Source: Minisyncoccota bacterium (GTDB taxonomy: Bacteria; Patescibacteriota; Minisyncoccia; Phycocordibacterales; UBA5272). Taken from it: a DNA stretch of 64,000 bases. The position numbers were made by a program, and so were the translations under genes. The DNA lies in NCBI GenBank assembly GCA_018062965.1, contig JAGORG010000004.1, positions 15,055 to 79,054 of the forward strand. The letters run 5' to 3'. This document shows, in pieces, positions 7,347 to 60,307 of this stretch. The notes beneath the pieces are model-generated. The model was given only the letters and a program-made list of their open reading frames with translations. It searched no databases and was not told where the DNA came from. Numbering within the stretch: position 1 is the first letter of the stretch; every line of letters begins with the position of its first letter.

Positions 7347-9188
7347 TTATCGTGTTACACACGCTCCCCAAAGTCCTGGATTGACACCTCCACATCCACC
7401 ACCGAGCGAACAAGATGCAACTTGAGAGCCGTAAGCGCTTACGATATCAGCATTACATGCACCTTGACCGTTTCCATTTACAAAGTTGCGAGTAACTGGC
7501 TCAGTTACAGTAATGGTAGCTGCAGCAGAATACGTGCTACATCCAACTATATTACAAGCTTGCGCCTGTATAAGATGACTTCCTGCAGAAAGCCCAAGAG
7601 ATGCGGGTGTCCCCGTCCAAGATGTTCCTGTTTGAGGATATATAGTACCACCAACTTTAACGTTATATGAGGTTGGTGAATTATTGGCTGACCATGTTAC
7701 TGTAAAGTTTTGAGTTGTAGAAAGACTTGTCGGGGTTACGGTTAATTGAGTTTGGGTTGGCGCAGCAGCTGCAACACTAGTAGCAGGAGTACTATTAATA
7801 CATGCACCCCATAAACCTGGATTCAATCCTCCACACCCACCACCAAGTGAACATGATGCAACTTGTGAACCATAGATACTCACAATCGTTGCATTACAAG
7901 AAGCTTGGCCGTTCCCATCAACAATATTACGAGAACCTGTAGTCGAAGCAGATGTCACATTAACGGTGATTGATTTTTCGGCAGAATAACTATTATTTGC
8001 ACACACGATTCTATAAGTCGTCGTCTGAGTTGGGTACACAGTGTACAACCCTTGAGTAAGATTCTTTTCAGTATTACCTCCGTAGTACAAGGTACATGTG
8101 TCTGCACCAGTTGTGTTCCAAGCAATTTGAGTACTTTGTCCTGCGGTAATGCTGTACGAAGAGGCCGAGAAACCGATAATCGGAACCCCGGTATTTGTTG
8201 AAGTATTAGTTGTTGTGTTTGTGGTTGCAGTTGATTCAACTGTTACTGTTTTATCAACTGAAACAACCTGTCCTTGTGTATTCATACACTCCACTCTGTA
8301 CGTAGTTGTTTGTACTGGATACAGAGTCTTTGTTCCCCACGTTGTTAATGTTTCTGAAGCTCCACTTGTTATATTTCTTCCACTGCAACTTGTTGCATTT
8401 GCTGCATTCCATGACAAATATGTTGCGGCACCTCTTTGAATATATGAAGGAGAGAGCGTGACATTTAGAGTTGGAGCTGAAACATATGTTGTGTTTGTAG
8501 TGGTGAGTGTACTTAGAATTTTAATTGGTACACCATTACTCTGCCCACGATCAGTTGTAATAGTTGTCATATAGGTAAACCCTGGGACAAAACTTGCCGG
8601 GACTCGAATCGTGATACGATCATATGTTGCAGATGTAACCGGCACATCAACCCCTGCCATGGTGACTCGTGGAGTAAACGTATTCCCTCCAATAAGGTTG
8701 GTACCGATAAATGTACCATCTCCATTTGCATCCATTTCAAAATTCCCTGCCGCTCTTGCATTTGTACTTACGATAACAGGCGCACCGCTTTGTGATGAAC
8801 CTGATTGGTAGGTAGTATTTGTTGTAGAAGTGGTTACATTTCCAGAACAAACTCGAGCAATCACAGCGCGAGTAAGTGACCCCGCAATTCCGTATGAAGG
8901 CAAATTATTATCTATCTGAAAATCTTTAATCGCCTGAACAGTAAGCCCTGCAACTCTACCTGTTGGAGCTTCGATATCGAGATACCCTCGCTCAATGAGG
9001 AATCTCTGTAACTGAGACGCTTGACCTTGTGTGGTTGCGTCCGTTGAACCTCGTTGCATAGTAATAGAGAGGTTTGGGCAATACCCAGCACGTGAGTTTG
9101 TAGCTGTGCCGTAGTCGTCAGCCATTTGAGCCATAGCGTGTGTACCAGATATCAGCGCAATAAGAAGTGCGAGTAAAGTTGTTTTCAT
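7347..9188 (-). CDS. Secreted modular surface protein with an N-terminal peptidoglycan-binding-like domain, Thr-rich Ig-like repeats and two C-terminal Cys-rich modules.
   Basis: Signal peptide MKTTLLALLIALISGTHAMA. PG_binding_1-like segment (LQRFLIERGYL...GLTVQAIKDFQ). Repeated ~95-aa domains follow (VPIKILS.../VPIIGFS...). A 45-aa Cys-rich module (NGNGQ.CNA.IVS.YGSQVASCSLGGGCGG.NPGLWGAC) occurs twice. Confidence 0.8.
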   Translation of the reverse strand: MKTTLLALLIALISGTHAMAQMADDYGTATNSRAGYCPNLSITMQRGSTDATTQGQASQLQRFLIERGYLDIEAPTGRVAGLTVQAIKDFQIDNNLPSYGIAGSLTRAVIARVCSGNVTTSTTNTTYQSGSSQSGAPVIVSTNARAAGNFEMDANGDGTFIGTNLIGGNTFTPRVTMAGVDVPVTSATYDRITIRVPASFVPGFTYMTTITTDRGQSNGVPIKILSTLTTTNTTYVSAPTLNVTLSPSYIQRGAATYLSWNAANATSCSGRNITSGASETLTTWGTKTLYPVQTTTYRVECMNTQGQVVSVDKTVTVESTATTNTTTNTSTNTGVPIIGFSASSYSITAGQSTQIAWNTTGADTCTLYYGGNTEKNLTQGLYTVYPTQTTTYRIVCANNSYSAEKSITVNVTSASTTGSRNIVDGNGQASCNATIVSIYGSQVASCSLGGGCGGLNPGLWGACINSTPATSVAAAAPTQTQLTVTPTSLSTTQNFTVTWSANNSPTSYNVKVGGTIYPQTGTSWTGTPASLGLSAGSHLIQAQACNIVGCSTYSAAATITVTEPVTRNFVNGNGQGACNADIVSAYGSQVASCSLGGGCGGVNPGLWGACVTR

Positions 9189-9308
9189 AAATAGTGAATG
9201 ATAGATTACACACTAAAGTGTACCATCAAAGTCAGGACACATACGTAGCAATTGTTGACAACTACTAACCTTAAGTGTAGATTGACAATAGATTTTAAGG
9301 AGTGAATC

Positions 9309-9809
9309 ATGTTTTTCTTTAGAAGGAATCACTACAACAAGCCATTTCGGGTTAAGGACATGAAACCCATGGACATGTTTTTATTTTTCAAGGGTATCAT
9401 CACACCTGAAGATTTCCTTTGTCCGTTTTCTACTACAATAGATGACGTTGTCTGTTCTTATTTTTTTCCAACCAGGGATAAAATATCTCCGTATGCAGGT
9501 TTAGGGTTGTATCCTTTTTCGGGCCAGCCTTATACCTCACCAGATAGTCAGGGGGTTCTTTTGATAATTTACGAAGAAATTCGTGACCCGCAAAACCCTC
9601 TTGCCATTAAACGCTCGGCCCCAAACTTTATGAGGATGGAGTTCTTTTGGTCAATATATCCTCCATACCCTTTTAAATCCATTAGCTGTATTCTTATCGG
9701 GGAAAGTCAACAATACCCTTTGAGCATAGAAAATCCAGTCTTCGGCTTAGCTCTAGAGATAGCGCGTAGGGCTCAAAAAACATGGACGGGTGCTTATCAA
9801 CATAGTTAA
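9309..9809 (+). CDS. Hypothetical protein.
   Basis: AAGGAG RBS lies 7 nt upstream of the ATG. A terminator hairpin (AAAGCCTCCACGTGGAGGCTTTTT) follows immediately. No recognisable domain. Confidence 0.45.
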   Translation: MFFFRRNHYNKPFRVKDMKPMDMFLFFKGIITPEDFLCPFSTTIDDVVCSYFFPTRDKISPYAGLGLYPFSGQPYTSPDSQGVLLIIYEEIRDPQNPLAIKRSAPNFMRMEFFWSIYPPYPFKSISCILIGESQQYPLSIENPVFGLALEIARRAQKTWTGAYQHS

Positions 9810-25716: not shown

Positions 25717-25874
25717 AGAAGCAATTGAAGCAAGCGCGGGACATCTACGGATGCCCCGCTTTTTTATATTCAAAAAGCACCACAATATTTGACATATATA
25801 TCTATTATGTGGTATAATGTATAGATAGGTTCCTTCACTTTTGAAGGGTAAACAATCAACTTTGGAGCAATCAA

Positions 25875-26744
25875 ATGTACCGAAAACTTGGCGCATTCAG
25901 CGTCTTTGTCTTTCTTGTGACCATGTGTGGGCTGGCTTTCTTTCTTGATAGCCTCACACTTGGTATTTCCGTAGGACTCATCACCGCAGCGTGTTTTACG
26001 CTCGCATGGACTGCACCTGTCGCCCTTTCCATCGCAATCAAGAACAATGAAAACTCTCTTGAGCGCTGGATTGGTATCGGAGCTGTCGCATTCAGCGGTT
26101 TGATGCTTGGTGCACTCTATCTGTGGTGTGAATGGGCCGGTTGGGTGCATAACACCCCTCGAGAGCACGGCATTACCTGGTATTCGACGGTTGCGCTCAT
26201 GGCAAACACAGCCATGTTCGTATTCCTGACAGCACTCCTGATGCTGTGGTACAAAGAGTGCCGTGAAAACCCTCGCGACCAACCACACTTTCCATTTGTG
26301 GTGGCAACACTGCCACTAGCGATCTTCCTCACCATTTCGGCGCAAGGCCCGTCTGTGGTTATCCTCAACATACTGTTTGCCACCGTGCAAATCGTAATTG
26401 CTTGGGTTTTCACACGACGAGGAGTTCGCATCCTCGTATCACTCATACCAAGTATCTACTTCTTTACTTCTGGTTGGTATTGGATTTACATCAAAACATC
26501 GTCTATCCCTGAGTTCATCTCAAGCGGCGACGCTGCACATCCGGGGATGGACCAGTTCCTCTCCTTTGGGCACTTTGTGCTCTTCGGAGCTGTACCACTT
26601 CTGCTCTCCATCGTATGGTTTGCGGCCTACAAGCCAAAGAAACCAGAAGATCAGGAATCGGATGAGGGTATTACACCCCTTATTCCGATCAACCCAGAAG
26701 ATCCCCCTTACAAAGGCAGGAATAGGAAGCGACTCTCGTCGTAA
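25875..26744 (+). CDS. Hypothetical polytopic membrane protein.
   Basis: Preceded by a consensus promoter (TTGACA 25789-25794, TATAAT 25813-25818) and a GGAG RBS. About 8 TM helices; moderately GC-enriched. A terminator hairpin sits at 26755-26785. Confidence 0.6.
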   Translation: MYRKLGAFSVFVFLVTMCGLAFFLDSLTLGISVGLITAACFTLAWTAPVALSIAIKNNENSLERWIGIGAVAFSGLMLGALYLWCEWAGWVHNTPREHGITWYSTVALMANTAMFVFLTALLMLWYKECRENPRDQPHFPFVVATLPLAIFLTISAQGPSVVILNILFATVQIVIAWVFTRRGVRILVSLIPSIYFFTSGWYWIYIKTSSIPEFISSGDAAHPGMDQFLSFGHFVLFGAVPLLLSIVWFAAYKPKKPEDQESDEGITPLIPINPEDPPYKGRNRKRLSS

Positions 26745-26780
26745 CCTACCCGCAACAATCGCCCTCAACCGAGGGCGATT

Positions 26781-27233
26781 TTATATGTCTTTTTTTACTT
26801 CATCTGCATGTACAGCGGATTTTACTTGTTCGTATATTTTTGCGATACTCCCCTTTTCATCAATAAGAAAACTCATACGATCGATTCCCACATATTCACG
26901 CCCCATGAACTTCTTTAATTTCCACACACCGTAACTTTTGATAACGTCAGTACTTTCATCTGATAGTAGCGGAAACTGAAGAGAAAACTTATCTGCAAAT
27001 TTCTTGTGACTTTTTACAGAGTCTTTGCTCATACCCAAAATAACTAGCCCACTATCTGCAAATGACGTGTACCCATCACGAAAGTTACACGCTTCGGTAG
27101 TACATCCTGGTGTATCATCTTTTGGATAGAAATAGAGCAGCACCTTTTTACCTTTGTATTGGTCAAGCCTGTGCAGTACACCGTCTTGATCTGGAAGAGA
27201 AAATGATGGAGCAACGTCTCCGACTTTTAGCAT
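26781..27233 (-). CDS. bcp: Peroxiredoxin (Bcp / AhpC-TSA family).
   Basis: The Bcp-type active site is in PKDDTPGCTTEAC. Confidence 0.85.
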   Translation of the reverse strand: MLKVGDVAPSFSLPDQDGVLHRLDQYKGKKVLLYFYPKDDTPGCTTEACNFRDGYTSFADSGLVILGMSKDSVKSHKKFADKFSLQFPLLSDESTDVIKSYGVWKLKKFMGREYVGIDRMSFLIDEKGSIAKIYEQVKSAVHADEVKKDI

Positions 27234-49163: not shown

Positions 49164-49430
49164 AAGATATATATAGTAATTAGAATGTAGGGAACAATAA
49201 ACAAAGAATTCACAGCACCAATAAACTAATAACTAACGTAAAGATACATATACAGTTTAACAGATTACAGAGTTCAGTCGTGGTGGATAATCAGACGATT
49301 CAGGATATATTCACAATACCGATATTTGCACCATCACGCAACTTGACTTATATATAGATATATTGTATAATATAAAGATGTTCCATGTGTTGTCAACACT
49401 GTCTGTTGCCGCATGGAAAAGGAGATCTTT

Positions 49431-49709
49431 ATGAAGTCCGTACCCATTCTTGGGTTGAAGATTTTTGCAACTGCGGTAGCGGTGTGGCTTGTGATGCTTG
49501 CGCTTCGCGCAGACCCCAAGTTTGCTACATGGATTGCGGCAACTGTCGCAATGGGTGCCTACCGCAACGAGCTCACAGAGTTCGTGCTTGACCCATTCGC
49601 AAAAGACGTACTCGGCATGCAGCTCCCGACGCCAAGCTGGATCAGTAAGCCCAACCTGACCGCTCTACTTGCGTCTCTGGCGGCCGGACTGAGCCTGCTG
49701 TTTGCTTGA
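49431..49709 (+). CDS. Small GC-rich membrane protein.
   Basis: Consensus promoter (TTGACT 49343-49348, TATAAT 49366-49371). AAGGAG RBS lies 8 nt before ATG 49431. Two TM helices. Terminator at about 49715-49742. GC content is well above the flanks. Confidence 0.5.
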   Translation: MKSVPILGLKIFATAVAVWLVMLALRADPKFATWIAATVAMGAYRNELTEFVLDPFAKDVLGMQLPTPSWISKPNLTALLASLAAGLSLLFA

Positions 49710-49828
49710 CCAACCACCGACCATCCCAGGTCGGTTTTTATATTTTTGACAAAACTATACATATAGTGTAGTTTTAATCCCGGCTGTACTTAGGCATATC
49801 GCCTTCAATCAACATACGGAGAAACACC

Positions 49829-52146: not shown

Positions 52147-52296
52147 GATAATGGTGATATATACCCAAACTCTACCATACAAAATAAAAAGCGCTTCCTT
52201 CGCTACTTCCCCATGCGGGGATATGTAAACGAGGAAGCGCGGTGGTCGACCGTCAGATGGAGACAGGGCTCAGATCAATCGACAGTGACCGGGCGA

Positions 52297-52614
52297 TCAG
52301 ACATCGCTCGGGTCGGTACTGCCCGTGCCCAGGTGTGTGGGCGGAGCTTGCGCGGTCAGGCAGCTGGAACCGCCACCATTGGCCGAAGTGATGCCGCCCG
52401 AGCCGCCACCGTTGATCGTCTTCATGCCGGTCACGTCACTGGAGCCACCGCCGGGGTTCATCTTGGTGATACCGTCTGCACTCGCAATGGACACGCCAGT
52501 GATCATGAGGGCGCCGCCCTGGAACGTGTTGATGTTGGTCGGGGGAGCTTGGCCGGCAGATGCCACGCCAGCAGCGCAAGCCAGAACGGCGAGCGCAATC
52601 AGGGACTTTTTCAT
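52297..52614 (-). CDS. Secreted glycine-rich small protein in a GC-rich islet.
   Basis: AGGAGA RBS before ATG 52614. Signal peptide MKKSLIALAVLACAAGVASA. Gly/Ser-rich repeats follow (GGGSSDVTG, GGGSGGITS, GGGSS). Confidence 0.5.
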   Translation of the reverse strand: MKKSLIALAVLACAAGVASAGQAPPTNINTFQGGALMITGVSIASADGITKMNPGGGSSDVTGMKTINGGGSGGITSANGGGSSCLTAQAPPTHLGTGSTDPSDV

Positions 52615-52779
52615 GTCGTTTCTCCTGGGTTCAATAATCACGCGGAAATTTTTTTGTACAAGCATAAAGGTATTCCGATAACCTTTACCTACCCAAACTC
52701 TAGCACACAGGAATCATGCCATACAAGAGTTATGCACATATTCTTTTCTTACATTTTTTTCTGTTACAATACATCACAC

Positions 52780-53268
52780 ATGAATCTCTCTGCGATTATT
52801 TCTTATATAACCACCTACCCATCTATCCCGCTTGCTATCGCACTTGGTATCGTTCTTGCATACGTCGTTTACCTCCACCGCAAAATCCACCACTTTACAA
52901 AAGGTGAAACTGGGGCATCACTTGAGTCTCTCATCAAAAACTGCATCGACAGCGTCAAAGATATAGAAGACCGTAACGAACTCATCTCAAAACACGCTCT
53001 GTCACTCGATACACGACTATCTCATGCGCTCCGCAATGTACACATGATGCGCTACAAAGCATTTGAACAAAACGGATCAAATCAATCGTTCTCACTCGCA
53101 CTCGTAAACGAAAAAGGAAATGGAGTTATCATCTCTACACTTCACTCTCATGACCGCGTGAGCACCTTTGCAAAGCCGATAGAAAAATATACGAGCACCT
53201 ATGAACTCACCGACGAAGAAAAAGAAGTTCTCAGCAAGAGCAAAGACGAGCACCGCAGTATCCGTTAA
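52780..53268 (+). CDS. DUF4446-family protein.
   Basis: N-terminal TM then the conserved ...MMRYKAFEQNGSNQSFSLALVNEKGNGVIISTLHSHD... block. It is the 3' portion of ORF-track entry 52213..53268. Confidence 0.6.
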   Translation: MNLSAIISYITTYPSIPLAIALGIVLAYVVYLHRKIHHFTKGETGASLESLIKNCIDSVKDIEDRNELISKHALSLDTRLSHALRNVHMMRYKAFEQNGSNQSFSLALVNEKGNGVIISTLHSHDRVSTFAKPIEKYTSTYELTDEEKEVLSKSKDEHRSIR

Positions 53269-55233: not shown

Positions 55234-55285
55234 AATACACAAGAAAAGCGCGCCTACGGCGCGCTTTTCTCTGCGTTTCTAACCC

Positions 55286-55313
55286 CTCCCAATACTTGAC
55301 AAAATGTATATTT
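55286..55313 (+). promoter_or_regulatory. Consensus sigma-70-type promoter driving GC-rich gene A.
   Basis: TTGACA (55286-55291), a 16-nt spacer, then TGTATAAT (55306-55313). It is nearly identical to the cassette at 56536-56563. Confidence 0.5.
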
Positions 55314-55421
55314 TATGTATAATATAATATGACATTTGTCGTTAGGACGACATGTCAGTTGTACCTCGTTTTTTTTAATTCAACCCAAGCCCTTCAAGGC
55401 TTTTACTTCTGGAGATATCAC

Positions 55422-56420
55422 ATGGGAAGTGGAAAATCCTTTCGTCGCGAAGACAAGCGCGCCATCCCGCGCGGCCCCGGCCCTCAAGCCAGTCGTGCCG
55501 CAATCCTGTCCCGTCAGTCTGAGACCCGCCACCAACCGGCACCTGCATGGACCTGGATCACAGGTGAAGACGCCTTGGTGAAAGCTTGCCTGGATATGCT
55601 GCATGGCATTCCTGGCATGTACCCGATCTTCGGCATCAAACTGGAAATCCAGGTGCGCCAAAGCAAAACCGAAGACTACCCAGTCCTCGTTTACTACGGC
55701 GCCGAAGCGAGCGACAGGCACGAAGGCCTACACGAGACGGATATGAGGGATGGCTTTGCTATGAGCCCTGACTCCTTGAAGTGGAACGTGACCAAAACCA
55801 CGCGCTTCAAAACTGAGTGGCATGAACTACTCACTCGCACGCTCCTGGGGCAACCTGAGATGCAAATGGCACGCCAAGACTTCTTCGCAGAACAAGAGAA
55901 GCTCGCTAAGCAACAAGATGAACAGGCTCGCGAGGCACAAACCAAGCGAACCAGTCTCGTCGCTCGCCTGCGAAACCAAGTGGCTACGCCCATGACGGAA
56001 CCCGCCGACCTGCCGATCGCCGAAAAAGCGCGCCCGCAAAGGCGCCAGAAACCGGAGTACCCGGAAGTCGACCACATCAGTGAACTGATCGACGGTGACA
56101 TCTGCGTCTTTTACCACTATTCGGGGACAACCCTGAAGACCTGCGAAGGCGACAAGAGGCAACTCGTGGTCCGCATCAGTGGGCTGAAGGACGAAAATCA
56201 CCCGATGTTCCGTGCATCCCAGCTGAACGTGTTCGCCTTCCTCGACGAGGTCGTCGAGGAGCCGGAAAACCCCAAGCTCGAGACCGAAATGCAGCGTGAA
56301 GGTCAAGCATTCCGCGTGTGGCTGCGCGAAGAAGGTATCCTGAACACACCGCAGCAGTCTACTGAGGGTGAACCCTCGGGAAACGTGGTGGGCACCGCGA
56401 CAGAATTGTCGACTTCCTGA
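55422..56420 (+). CDS. Hypothetical protein (GC-rich, foreign codon usage), gene A.
   Basis: GGAGA RBS lies 7 nt before ATG 55422. GC3 is very high relative to neighbours. Basic N-terminus MGSGKSFRREDKRAIPRGPG; no recognisable domain. A terminator hairpin sits at 56479-56527. Confidence 0.6.
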   Translation: MGSGKSFRREDKRAIPRGPGPQASRAAILSRQSETRHQPAPAWTWITGEDALVKACLDMLHGIPGMYPIFGIKLEIQVRQSKTEDYPVLVYYGAEASDRHEGLHETDMRDGFAMSPDSLKWNVTKTTRFKTEWHELLTRTLLGQPEMQMARQDFFAEQEKLAKQQDEQAREAQTKRTSLVARLRNQVATPMTEPADLPIAEKARPQRRQKPEYPEVDHISELIDGDICVFYHYSGTTLKTCEGDKRQLVVRISGLKDENHPMFRASQLNVFAFLDEVVEEPENPKLETEMQREGQAFRVWLREEGILNTPQQSTEGEPSGNVVGTATELSTS

Positions 56421-56535
56421 AGTCGATTTTCCGTATCGGTGCCGCCAAAGGTGCCTAAGCCAACAATGGCTTCATAATAGCGTATCTACCTAGCTTTTTA
56501 GCGACAGTAGATACGCTGTTTTTTATTTTCTATAC

Positions 56536-56563
56536 TTGACAAAATACATATTTCGTGTATAAT
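56536..56563 (+). promoter_or_regulatory. Consensus sigma-70-type promoter driving GC-rich gene B; a paralogue of 55286-55313.
   Basis: ATACTTGACAAAAT(A/G)(C/T)ATATTT(C/T)(G/A)TGTATAATATA is shared between the two cassettes, with about 31 of 36 nt identical. Confidence 0.5.
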
Positions 56564-56637
56564 ATATATTAGCCCTTTGAACGATTCTGTTCATTGGATT
56601 CTTTGAAAACTCCCCTGTTGAATTGAAGGAGAAAGTA

Positions 56638-57666
56638 ATGGCAAAGACCAAAACAACCCAGCAAAAGAAATCCCCACATGGGAAAGTAAACCCCGTGAAC
56701 ATGGGAACTCCGGGCGCAAACATCGCCCGAAGCGAAGCTGGTCGTTTGCACAAGAAGCAGGTGCAAAAAGTGCGCCATAATAGCGCTGTCGCACAACGTG
56801 AAGCAGCGCAGCATGTCGAGCATCGCAAGCTGACTATCCAGTTCGACTCTCTGTCCCGAAACTACGAAGCAATGCTTCGTGGCACACAGGGCAAATCCTT
56901 CGGACTGAGACTGAACAAGTCATTCGAAAACTATTCTGCTTTTGGCATAATCAGAATGGAAATCCGTATCTGCGGCAAACACAACTTGCCGTCGATCATG
57001 GTGACTGGTTCAACCTTCGACCCCATCCCGGAGAGCGAAGGGAACTTCTTGCCATTGGTTACGCTGGCGCACAAGACCCTGAAAGACGTTGGTCAACCGA
57101 AGCACGTCCTCGACTGGCAGGTGGAACTCCATTCGACGCTCCGCCATTTCCTGAAAGACGAACTCGGAGCAAACCCTCCCTTCAGCTCCAAACTGACACC
57201 GCCTGTTCACATCGTTGCTCCGCAGCTTCAACTCCGACCGCAACGCACCGCAGATCACGAGTCTGCAACTGCACAAGCAAATAAAAGCGAAGAAGGGGTG
57301 GATGTCACCGGCCACAAGCCGCTGACAGGCACCCAATTCTTCGCAAAGGATACATCTGGCATCTACACCCACGAAAAAAATGGGTGTCTCGCCTACTTCC
57401 GGTTGGAGCGTATCGCCGGCGTGCAATCGTTCAAACTGGTTGCAGTGGACGAAGGCCATCCGCTCATGCACTGCCTGGAGCACCACGACACCGTCCATGT
57501 GCACCTGCAGGACCTACCGGCGAACAACCGCCCATATGGTGCACTGCAGGAAATGCGCAACGCGCGCGAGTGTGTACGCCAGTACCTGCGCCAGGTCGGC
57601 ATGAGTTTCGGCATCAAACCGAAAATGAAACATGGCTCCCCTGAACAGCAGCAATCAGTGGCCTGA
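56638..57666 (+). CDS. Hypothetical protein (GC-rich, foreign codon usage), gene B.
   Basis: GAAGGAGA RBS lies 5 nt before the ATG. Basic N-terminus MAKTKTTQQKKSPHGK...; no recognisable domain. An intrinsic terminator sits at about 57692-57728. Confidence 0.6.
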   Translation: MAKTKTTQQKKSPHGKVNPVNMGTPGANIARSEAGRLHKKQVQKVRHNSAVAQREAAQHVEHRKLTIQFDSLSRNYEAMLRGTQGKSFGLRLNKSFENYSAFGIIRMEIRICGKHNLPSIMVTGSTFDPIPESEGNFLPLVTLAHKTLKDVGQPKHVLDWQVELHSTLRHFLKDELGANPPFSSKLTPPVHIVAPQLQLRPQRTADHESATAQANKSEEGVDVTGHKPLTGTQFFAKDTSGIYTHEKNGCLAYFRLERIAGVQSFKLVAVDEGHPLMHCLEHHDTVHVHLQDLPANNRPYGALQEMRNARECVRQYLRQVGMSFGIKPKMKHGSPEQQQSVA

Positions 57667-57766
57667 TTAAGTTCACGCAATGTGATACACAAACCCCGTC
57701 AAACGTTAAATCGTTTCGGGGTTTTTTCTTTTGTCCATTTTAATGTATAATCATCAAACACTCGAC

Positions 57767-57848
57767 GCCCGGGTGGCGAAATTGGTAGACGCACTTGCCT
57801 TAGGAGCAAGCGCCGCAAGGCATGAAGGTTCAAGTCCTTTCCCGGGCA
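57767..57848 (+). tRNA. tRNA-Leu (anticodon TAG).
   Basis: Acceptor GCCCGGG/CCCGGGC; anticodon stem CTTGC/GCAAG with loop CUUAGGA; long variable arm; T-arm AAGGTTCAAGTCCTT. A TATAAT box lies at 57745-57750. Confidence 0.85.
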
Positions 57849-57852
57849 CTTT

Positions 57853-58545
57853 ATGAAAATCCCCGTTATATTCGAGGATGAAAACATACTTGTCATCAAC
57901 AAACCTGCAGGACTTGTTGTACACCCTTTTGATAACTCTACAGAGGAGACGCTTTTGGATATTCTTAAGGAGCGTAATCCTGAATGTTTTTCGTTTGATA
58001 ATCTACTAACACTTCAAGACGGCAGAGTTATTAATCTTGGTGGCATTGTTCATAAGCTTGACCGAGAAACATCTGGTGTTATGGTTATCGCAAAGTCACA
58101 TGAAGTGTTTGAAGGCCTTCAGAAACAGTTTCTAAACCACGCAACACAAAAAGAATACATAGCTCTCGTTGAGGGTGGTGTTGACCAAAACACATTTGTA
58201 ATTGATGCACCGCTATCACGCATCAAAAAAAGTTTTAAGCGTACAACAGACATGAATATTGCTCGAGGGAAACAAGTGAGCGCACTCACTCACGGAGAAG
58301 TTATTTCACGAAATGAATCGACAACCTGTGTTCGTTTGTTACCTGTTACTGGACGCACACATCAATTGCGTGCACACATGGCACATATCAGTCACCCAAT
58401 AGTAGGAGACAATGTATACGGAACTAAAGGCACCAATTCCCCACTCATGCTTCACGCCCACAAACTAACCCTCAACGTGAAAGGTGAACAAAAAACCTAT
58501 GAGGCACAGGTGCCAGAAATATTTGGGTACCCGGCGTACCACTAA
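57853..58545 (+). CDS. RluA-family pseudouridine synthase.
   Basis: Catalytic Asp motif HRLDRETSGVMVIAK; 230 aa. A terminator hairpin sits at 58582-58615. Confidence 0.85.
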   Translation: MKIPVIFEDENILVINKPAGLVVHPFDNSTEETLLDILKERNPECFSFDNLLTLQDGRVINLGGIVHKLDRETSGVMVIAKSHEVFEGLQKQFLNHATQKEYIALVEGGVDQNTFVIDAPLSRIKKSFKRTTDMNIARGKQVSALTHGEVISRNESTTCVRLLPVTGRTHQLRAHMAHISHPIVGDNVYGTKGTNSPLMLHAHKLTLNVKGEQKTYEAQVPEIFGYPAYH

Positions 58546-58622
58546 TTACCCACGGTTCGGGTCTCATTATAAACTGTAAAAACAAAAACACGGAAAAGCA
58601 TTTCCGTGTTTTTGTTTTCATG

Positions 58623-58707
58623 TGCCCAGGGCGGGACTCGAACCCGCACGCCATTAGATGACAGAAAATTTTAAGTCTTCCGCGGCTACCATTACGCCAC
58701 CCGGGCA
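58623..58707 (-). tRNA. tRNA-Leu (anticodon TAA).
   Basis: Reverse complement gives acceptor GCCCGGG/CCTGGGC, an anticodon loop CUUAAAA and a long variable arm with T-arm GCGGGTTCGAGTCCCGC. Confidence 0.8.
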
Positions 58708-59189
58708 TTATTGTTATTTACCTTTTTATTTCTACCTCTGTGCGTTGACTGCATACTGTGACAGTTAGGACAAAGAATCCTTAGATTTTCTATCCTGTTG
58801 TCTCTATGTTTTCCATTAATATGGTCAAGCTCAACAGGGATTCTACCATCTTCTGTGACTCTCGCCCAGCCACACATTTCACATTTAGGTTTCTTGATAC
58901 CTTCTTTAAAGAGTCTTTGTTTCAATTTAAAACTCTGGAAGTCGCTATTTTCAACTAAAATATCTTTTGTTGCTATAAGTACTTTTCTCGGAATAACTTT
59001 GCCCTTGTTGGATCCTTTACCTAAAAAGTGTTTTATATCAAGATCGTGAATACGAATATATTTCTTAATTTGCTCGTAGTTTCCGCCAGCTTGAACTAAG
59101 TTAAGTTTCTTTAAAACTTGGCGTATACTCGTAGAATTTTTTATAGCCACCTTCAAGCCAGGCAAATCCCACTTTTTTGTTCTTACCAT
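58692..59189 (-). CDS. HNH endonuclease.
   Basis: The HNH core ELDHINGKHRDNRIENLRILCPNCH plus a zinc-finger CEMCGW. Its 3' end overlaps tRNA-Leu(TAA) by about 16 nt. Confidence 0.7.
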   Translation of the reverse strand: MVRTKKWDLPGLKVAIKNSTSIRQVLKKLNLVQAGGNYEQIKKYIRIHDLDIKHFLGKGSNKGKVIPRKVLIATKDILVENSDFQSFKLKQRLFKEGIKKPKCEMCGWARVTEDGRIPVELDHINGKHRDNRIENLRILCPNCHSMQSTHRGRNKKVNNNNARVA

Positions 59190-59229
59190 AATGGTATAGT
59201 AACACAAATAACTATTCTTCTATGTGTAC

Positions 59230-60248: not shown

Positions 60249-60307
60249 CAAATAAAAAAGCGCGCCGTAGGCGCGCTTTTGTGTTTATTGTTCACCAGTA
60301 AACTTTT

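Follow-up and report, generated by a model that had tools for sequence, protein, structure and literature searches.

We describe two adjacent genes, called gene A and gene B below, in a 64,000-nt stretch of a Minisyncoccota bacterium genome; this whole stretch is the window, and all coordinates are positions in it. The two genes are flanked by chromosomal core genes, infB and rbfA on one side and tRNA-Leu and rluA on the other, and each has its own promoter, leader, coding sequence and intrinsic terminator; an earlier note on this DNA had recognized that each has a promoter cassette and a terminator of its own. Open reading frames (ORFs) of the window were called mechanically, at a length of at least 100 aa, and relatives' contigs or loci that were compared with the window carry labels from L009 to L025. 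The features of the locus, all on the plus strand, are:

55237-55276 (+): rbfA terminator hairpin, fold -24 kcal/mol, z -6.5, also called by a terminator scan
55292-55326 (+): promoter cassette 1, A-type 'TATG', with -35 TTGACA at 55296-55301 and -10 TATAAT at 55318-55323, TG directly before the -10
55331-55421 (+): predicted 5' leader of gene A, with hairpins at 55331-55356 and 55387-55402 and Shine-Dalgarno GGAG at 55411-55414
55422-56420 (+): gene A, 332 aa
56476-56526 (+): intrinsic terminator of gene A, a 14-bp stem and then a T-run
56532-56566 (+): promoter cassette 2, B-type 'CGTG', with -35 at 56536-56541 and -10 at 56558-56563
56571-56637 (+): predicted 5' leader of gene B, with a hairpin at 56574-56597 and Shine-Dalgarno AAGGAG at 56626-56631
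56638-57666 (+): gene B, 342 aa
57691-57730 (+): intrinsic terminator of gene B, a hairpin and then a T-run
57767-57849 (+): tRNA-Leu(TAG), called by both ARAGORN and Rfam, the conserved right-hand edge of a variable slot

The 35-nt promoter cassette ATACTTGACAAAATnnATATTTnnTGTATAATATA has exactly two copies in the window (starts 55292 and 56532, identical at 31 of the 35 positions), where 100 shuffles gave an expectation of 0. Both copies match the consensus at 12 of 12 positions, TTGACA-N16-TATAAT with a 16-nt spacer. The formula proposed earlier, TTGACA-N16-TGnTATAAT, was thus right about a duplicated consensus cassette and wrong about the TGn spacing, the TG abutting the -10 directly (TGTATAAT, N16-TATAAT). 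TGTATAAT is the commonest -10 style in this genome, and tRNA-Leu(TAG) has its own TGTATAAT promoter at about 57744. The 'TATG' variant goes with A-type genes and the 'CGTG' variant with B-type genes in the window, L012 and L014, despite the inverted cassette order of L014 (B''-A, where B'' is the B-type gene of that genome). Promoter cassette 1 is kept upstream of the A orthologues in L012 and L014, the CGTG variant also precedes B-type genes in L014, L018 and L020, and distant family members retain TTGACAAA, an AT-rich spacer and TGTATAAT. Since the variants track gene type across lineages, even with the order inverted, the promoter is part of the cassette and was not captured locally. This makes the two promoter copies ancient paralogues under purifying selection, neither a recent duplication nor native promoters seized by foreign cargo.

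The terminators are strong. That of gene A, with its hairpin at 56476-56520, folds at -22.9 kcal/mol (z -7.5, with 0 of 200 shuffles folding equally well) and is conserved in L012; that of gene B, with its hairpin at 57691-57724, folds at -15.7 kcal/mol (z -4.5), and a near-identical core sequence lies downstream of the L014 B-type gene. The rbfA terminator shields cassette A against read-through from infB-rbfA; a 35-nt inverted copy of it (55234-55268), 91% identical, occurs at 60256-60289 near a tRNA-Cys/tRNA-Lys cluster, making it a repeated terminator element. GGAG stands 8 nt before the gene A ATG and AAGGAG 7 nt before the start of gene B.

With transcription starts (~55331 and 56571) placed from the promoter sequence, the gene A leader is 90-95% identical to those of L012 and L022, whereas the coding sequence drops to 44-67%, and its hairpin at 55387-55402 (AAGCC-N6-GGCTT) is conserved. 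A hairpin at the leader's 5' end is predicted also in L012 and, from a different sequence, in L014, and is absent from the minimum-free-energy and centroid folds of L022. For gene B a hairpin at the same position is predicted in L020 from a different sequence, and TCCCCTGTTGAATTGAAGGAGA is shared by the window and L020. Altogether, 5 of the 6 cassettes folded have a predicted hairpin at or within a few nucleotides of the leader 5' end, some of them from differing sequences. The individual folds of gene A leaders have weak z values (-0.75 to -1.65), and an Rfam scan of the window for structured RNA matched tRNAs only. Hairpins that act as 5' stabilizers, as in the ompA and aprE leaders, favor long-lived mRNA, and by analogy the leader hairpins here would prolong mRNA life.

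The start of gene A is ATG 55422, all orthologues beginning MG(S/N)GK; a longer ORF from 55329 was rejected, both on this ground and because its ATG lies inside the promoter. The NCBI model of gene B (P0008, 321 aa) apparently starts 21 codons too late. Between strains, dN/dS for gene A is ~0.2 (0.01 for IF2), which shows A and B to be genuine coding genes. The gene A protein begins with a basic N-tail that is conserved (residues 1-25), continues with a hypervariable N-domain and a long helix, and ends in a better conserved C-terminal domain; its AlphaFold2 model is poor, with a mean predicted local distance difference test score (pLDDT) of 44 from a 7-sequence alignment. The gene B model (pLDDT 80.5, 23-sequence alignment) has a basic disordered tail, a long helix at 25-69, an alpha/beta N-domain of three strands plus helices, a disordered linker at 186-218 and a second alpha/beta domain, whose last helix is the conserved RNARECVRQYLR. 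The basic, disordered-looking N-termini that had been noticed in both proteins are indeed low-confidence or disordered in the models, and the impression that neither protein has a recognizable domain was borne out by 0 matches for A or B in Pfam, PHROGs, PADLOC and NCBIfam.

Scans of the same four libraries with A, B, the proteins in the gene B slot of sister strains (B'), B'' and long forms of the family gave nothing consistent, the matches on P0066 and P0079 resembling repeat artefacts; the PADLOC defense hidden Markov models had 0 matches for A, B, B', B'' or the long form. A sequence profile search of the PDB returned no match, and neither did the gene B model match any viral structure in BFVD significantly. 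In Foldseek against the PDB, nothing reached E <=0.001 with the gene B model, and its top matches were PUR-alpha repeats I-II and tandem double-stranded RNA-binding domains (dsRBDs). By eye, with no predictor run, neither A nor B has an N-terminal hydrophobic signal peptide or long hydrophobic segment, and the suggestion that they are secreted effectors lacks direct support.

A direct BLASTP comparison of A with B was not significant. Profile comparison with hhalign nonetheless aligned the A family to the B family through their C-terminal domains (probability 94%, E 1.3e-7), and the B type to the B' type over the full length (probability 99.6%, E 1e-24). A B-type basic tail and an A-type N-domain are combined in one protein, P0078, which both the A profile (E 1e-5) and the B profile (E 3.4e-4) match. 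Family members, built on a common plan of basic disordered N-tail, alpha/beta N-domain, flexible linker and alpha/beta C-domain, mix different types of N- and C-domain, and forms of 456-471 aa carry one extra N-domain. On these alignments A and B are ancient paralogues sharing a C-terminal domain.

The family is rare. Among 5.8 billion proteins we found 7 relatives for A and 10 for B, with 7 to 11 matches in each such search and the gene A orthologues being 58-61% and 38% identical, and a profile search of 1.84 billion cluster representatives gave 65 clusters. A 'Candidatus Pacebacteria bacterium' metagenome-assembled genome (MAG) has the exact gene A protein among its annotations. This protein is present in identical form on 10 contigs (8 among the matches listed), each from a different sample and, where flanking DNA is present, with the same flanks, so that an assembly artefact is excluded. 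Among the GTDB species genomes the A profile matched one, a Candidatus Paceibacterota MAG (the L014 genome), and the B profile matched none. Relatives of A or B were found neither in two scans of IMG/VR nor by tblastn in 50,697 phage genomes, and a scan of JGI metagenomes with B patterns gave no match. Every homologue with a checkable source lies on a contig that is Paceibacterota or resembles the candidate phyla radiation (CPR), not in the high-GC Actinobacteria where the best matches had been predicted.

The surrounding gene order is SOD, aminotransferase, DUF4446, infB, rbfA, the slot, (tRNA-Leu) and rluA, and in every relative with this neighborhood the slot holds family members. The rbfA-rluA slot is so occupied, with the same composition, in L009-L013, L014, L020, L021 and L022, and it is shared, with an equal excess of G+C at third codon positions (GC3), by relatives down to 78% IF2 identity. 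Absence from sister genomes would be expected under the transfer idea; family members with the same bias sit in the same slot of relatives, which the earlier note had itself named as evidence against that idea. Family members also occur at other slots (after rpsI, between DUF4446 and aminotransferase, and elsewhere) in L017, L018, L024 and L025.

What the slot contains differs sharply between close strains. Amino acid identities between the window and relatives are:

L022: IF2 100%, RbfA 99%, A 61%, B-slot protein 24%
L012: IF2 97%, RbfA 99%, A 63%, B-slot protein 29%

The nucleotide identity profile of the window against the same two relatives, L012 and L022, runs from left to right as:

flanks, promoter 1, A leader and first ~25 codons: 93-99%
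gene A N-domain: 44-67%
gene A C-domain: 77-93%
promoter 2: 98%
just past the -10 of promoter 2 to the B terminator: ~50% (unrelated)
tRNA-Leu: 100%, though the adjoining gene B is unrelated

At promoter 2, block 56507-56566 is 98% identical to L012, although all sequence downstream is unrelated. For the same strain pair, dS is 1.3 for the A alleles (saturated in the N-domain) vs. 0.17 for IF2. Window B is 49% identical to the B of a distant genus, L020 (IF2 77%), vs. 24-29% to the B' of its own species. Such deep divergence beside near-identical flanks indicates allelic or cassette replacement by recombination rather than gradual divergence in place, and the placing of this locus in the flexible genome is upheld, alleles being swapped between strains whose IF2 is 97-100% identical.

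Other insertions and replacements were seen at or near the slot. In L021 a His_Phos_1 histidine-phosphatase gene (8839-9663, GC3 0.43, opposite strand) separates rbfA from cassette A, which again shows that insertions can enter the slot. On the minus strand at 58692-59207, an HNH-endonuclease ORF (Pfam HNH and HNH_3) adjoins or overlaps tRNA-Leu(TAA), which lies at 58622-58706, and since sequence past 58524 is unrelated in L012, this appears to be a strain-specific insertion downstream of rluA (58524-59207). Segment 49857-50800, comprising a 136-aa ORF and Fe-SOD, is 53-76% identical in nucleotides to L022, whose flanks are 94-99% identical, and is not GC-rich; there are thus several replacement hotspots, and hypervariability alone does not bring high GC.

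The two genes stand out in base composition. The window averages 43% GC, and 55500-57500 reaches 55-57%. Gene A has GC 0.58 and GC3 0.65 (z 4.0), and gene B GC 0.54 and GC3 0.63 (z 3.6), against a mean of 0.379, standard deviation (sd) 0.069 and maximum of 0.572 for the other 62 window ORFs, so that the GC3 of both genes is, as had been claimed, far above that of their neighbors. A hand count of ~73% GC for a 60-nt stretch vs. ~42% in an ATP synthase gene was also close, the richest 60-nt stretch of A having 75% and the ATP-synthase genes averaging 43.7%. The excess ends at the ORF boundaries, leaders and spacers being AT-rich. In the window genes the codon shift is mainly from NNT to NNC, 2-fold purine codons barely changing, and at 4-fold sites C and G replace A and T (favored codons include CTG, CCG, GGC, CGC, ACC and ATC); the coding strands are U-poor (16-18% T). 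Family GC3 exceeded that of flanking housekeeping genes in 7 of 7 independent lineages, with offsets of +0.12 to +0.34 (mean +0.23), and rose with background GC3 (slope 0.90, r 0.77, P = 0.045, 7 lineages). We conclude that the excess of GC is inherent in this family, as in a few other strongly promoted ORFans (genes lacking known relatives), and has long been maintained.

These others came from the promoter search. On its coding strands the window has only 4 sigma-70 type sites that are perfect or nearly so, and all 4 precede GC-rich ORFan genes with their own terminators: A, B, 25875-26744 and 49431-49709. The third lies in 25789-26790, where a perfect TTGACA-N18-TATAAT promoter (TGG before the -10) is followed by a 289-aa multi-pass membrane ORFan (GC3 0.545, no Pfam match) and a terminator hairpin. 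The fourth, in 49343-49745, comprises a GC-rich membrane ORFan of 92 aa and its terminator, behind a nearly perfect consensus promoter (49343); this segment is 43-65% identical in nucleotides to L022, whose flanks are 94-99% identical. A small GC-rich ORF (~0.63-0.66) at 52297-52665 on the minus strand encodes a Gly-rich protein with, by eye, an N-terminal hydrophobic signal-like segment; its neighbors are the aminotransferase and DUF4446 genes, it has a core (52295-52555) that is hypervariable from strain to strain, and in L024 a member of the A/B superfamily occupies this aminotransferase-DUF4446 slot. The automatic DUF4446 call (351 aa, 52213-53268) is overextended across this antisense ORF, its real start being near 52780. 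Small ORFans with GC3 of 0.6-0.77 against backgrounds of 0.32-0.48 were found also in L017 (13662-14696), L018 (1485-1991, 8267-8620 and 17660-17887), L012 (586-888) and L010 (6875-7258), and a GC-rich ORFan class appears general in Paceibacteria genomes. Window segment 61500-63200 holds a cluster of short ORFs of GC 0.47-0.52 encoding single-pass membrane proteins with Pro/Gln-rich tails, for which gene models are uncertain, the ORFs overlapping on both strands.

Two single-factor accounts of the GC excess were rejected. Pure translational selection for NNC over NNT fits the window and fails in L017, L018 and L020, where purine codons shift too. GC-biased gene conversion is disfavored as sole cause, because the equally hypervariable SOD segment is AT-rich, so that recombination alone is insufficient. 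The main candidates are selection at the mRNA or codon level for very high expression, or continual turnover from a GC-richer CPR gene pool.

We consider it probable that A and B are two self-contained, apparently strongly expressed cassettes of a polymorphic family restricted to Paceibacteria, swapped between strains by homologous recombination. Each monocistronic cassette combines a consensus -35/-10 promoter, a predicted 5'-hairpin leader, a strong Shine-Dalgarno sequence, a coding sequence and an intrinsic terminator. In the strain-variable rbfA/tRNA-Leu slot, deeply divergent alleles and even different family members would be exchanged by homologous recombination through the conserved flanks, promoters and terminators. 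As cause of the GC excess we would favor synonymous or mRNA-level selection for a U-poor, stable and heavily expressed message. On what is a weak basis, A and B would most likely be abundant in the cytoplasm, with nucleic acid or another polyanion as ligand and with diversifying pressure on the variable domain. Several points weigh against this picture. High expression is deduced from the sequence alone, and, taken singly, the leader folds fall short of significance (z -0.75 to -2.0). Amino acid usage is GC-shifted too, with less Ile and Tyr and more Arg, Pro, Gln and His, which a mutational or import bias fits at least as well as does codon selection. In L017, ribosomal-protein genes beside a family member have GC3 of 0.43-0.51 vs. 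0.74 for that member, so that genome-wide translational selection for GC-ending codons is not evident. The restriction to Paceibacteria could be checked at source for only a minority of the 65 clusters.

The anomaly might instead reflect continuing import from a GC-richer pool within CPR or its mobile elements, with moron-like units that move between Paceibacteria genomes, come in GC-rich from a reservoir of higher GC (a lineage or a virus) and are replaced before they drift to local composition, an explanation that we find somewhat unlikely. Allelic replacement is demonstrated by alleles of saturated dS in strains with a flank dS of 0.17, window B resembles the B of a distant genus more closely than it does the conspecific B', the L014 order is inverted, and family members turn up in other slots in L017, L018, L024 and L025; the shift in amino acid composition and, in some lineages, in 2-fold purine codons would also follow from import, and the published definition of phage morons (own promoter and terminator, deviant GC; PMC3594210) fits. 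However, a family member at background GC3 was seen in 0 of the 7 lineages, and the slope of 0.9 with host background suggests that the genes have long been resident, not that they came from a single fixed source. The 5' segment of A that the haplotypes share belongs to its GC-rich part; no relatives turned up in IMG/VR or among the 50,697 phage genomes; and at the locus itself, adjoining tRNA-Leu notwithstanding, there is no integrase among the window ORFs, no flanking repeat apart from the two promoter copies, and no other mobility gene. The last point bears equally on the original proposal of recent acquisition from a high-GC phylum, such as that of an actinobacterial host, of effector genes then placed under native AT-rich promoters. 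It was a natural reading of genes with GC3 ~4 sd over the window mean, a codon profile like that of a ~55% GC genome and an adjoining tRNA gene, and we now regard it as highly improbable: no homologue was traced outside Paceibacterota or CPR-like contigs, orthologues with the same slot and bias extend to relatives with 78% IF2 identity, the GC3 offset recurs in all lineages compared, and each promoter variant keeps to its own gene type from lineage to lineage, which removes the notion of cargo wired to native promoters.

That the slot is a conflict locus is compatible with the picture of recombining cassettes, although we judge it unlikely. A polymorphic system for defense, anti-defense or host interaction, its specificity domain variable and its effector or oligomerization domain conserved, would have become hypervariable through an arms race, in keeping with deep haplotypes at a fixed hotspot adjoining a tRNA gene, with the mosaic divergence of gene A (44-67% nucleotide identity in the N-domain vs. 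77-93% in the C-domain), with the shuffling of N- and C-domain types between members, and with a dN/dS ~10 times that of flanking genes. Yet dN/dS is well under 1 in each segment tested, PADLOC gave no match, the library scans matched no enzymatic or known effector domain, no signal peptide or long hydrophobic segment was apparent by eye (again with no predictor run), and the consensus promoters suggest constitutive expression, which is unusual for defense genes. A broader form of the idea, which we hold to be quite unlikely, makes the whole superfamily one of Paceibacteria-specific, polymorphic and abundant nucleic-acid-binding proteins engaged in genetic conflict, whether with phages and mobile DNA or in host manipulation, the GC-rich and U-poor recoding being adaptive in that it might evade AU-directed RNases, toxins or AT-targeting silencing. 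If so, a GC-rich gene behind a consensus promoter would be the signature of a special expression class in reduced genomes.

A strong local GC3 anomaly beside a tRNA gene is usually taken as a sign of recent horizontal transfer. The present case is a warning for screens of that kind: the anomaly belongs specifically to one family and is stable in lineages with only about 77-79% IF2 identity. The link between consensus promoters and GC-rich ORFans, with its four cases in the window, bears further on what maintains base composition within one genome. To our knowledge almost nothing is known of how CPR bacteria interact with their hosts and phages. The uncharacterized, modular superfamily described here is lineage-restricted, appears equipped for very high expression and undergoes replacement among strains that are otherwise nearly identical; genes of this sort are expected to underlie strain-level ecological differences. 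The family points to a possible class of CPR proteins that are specific to strains and apparently expressed at high levels.

Several known systems resemble this one in part. Antigenic-variation expression sites of the pilE/pilS or vlsE type share with gene A a conserved promoter and conserved 5' and 3' ends around a hypervariable center. They differ in that tblastn and blastn found no silent partial copies that could serve as donor cassettes in the 64-kb window, and in that the variation of A was seen between strains, not within a clone, in a protein with no evident export signal. PUR-alpha/Whirly-like and dsRBD folds may be compared with the gene B model, each of whose domains has three beta strands with flanking helices, along with a flexible linker and a basic tail; by our own reading of the topology the domains are loosely like the alpha-beta-beta-beta-alpha layout of dsRBDs, the Foldseek match not being significant. 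As in tRNA-adjacent islets and defense-island hotspots, a fixed slot bounded by core genes and a tRNA gene is filled, in near-identical strains, by deeply divergent alleles or by different genes, but here it lacks integrase, direct repeats and known defense genes, and its occupants always belong to one superfamily, each with a conserved promoter.

The cassettes also have a likeness to phage morons, which are autonomous promoter-gene-terminator units of deviant GC (PMC3594210). Like them, A and B each have their own sigma-70 type promoter and intrinsic terminator, stand among unrelated neighbors of differing GC, and vary in content between close relatives. Unlike them, A and B lie in a chromosomal core neighborhood (infB-rbfA/tRNA-Leu-rluA) rather than a prophage, with 0 PHROG matches and no phage relatives in the collections searched (IMG/VR and the 50,697 phage genomes), and their deviant GC persists across lineages and so is not a mark of recent arrival. 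Neither the libraries nor the literature that we searched contain a description of this family, and the literature search gave no account of the phenomenon either. What sets the locus apart from morons and tRNA hotspots is the combination of a chromosomal core setting, occupants from a single superfamily and a GC deviation that lasts across lineages.

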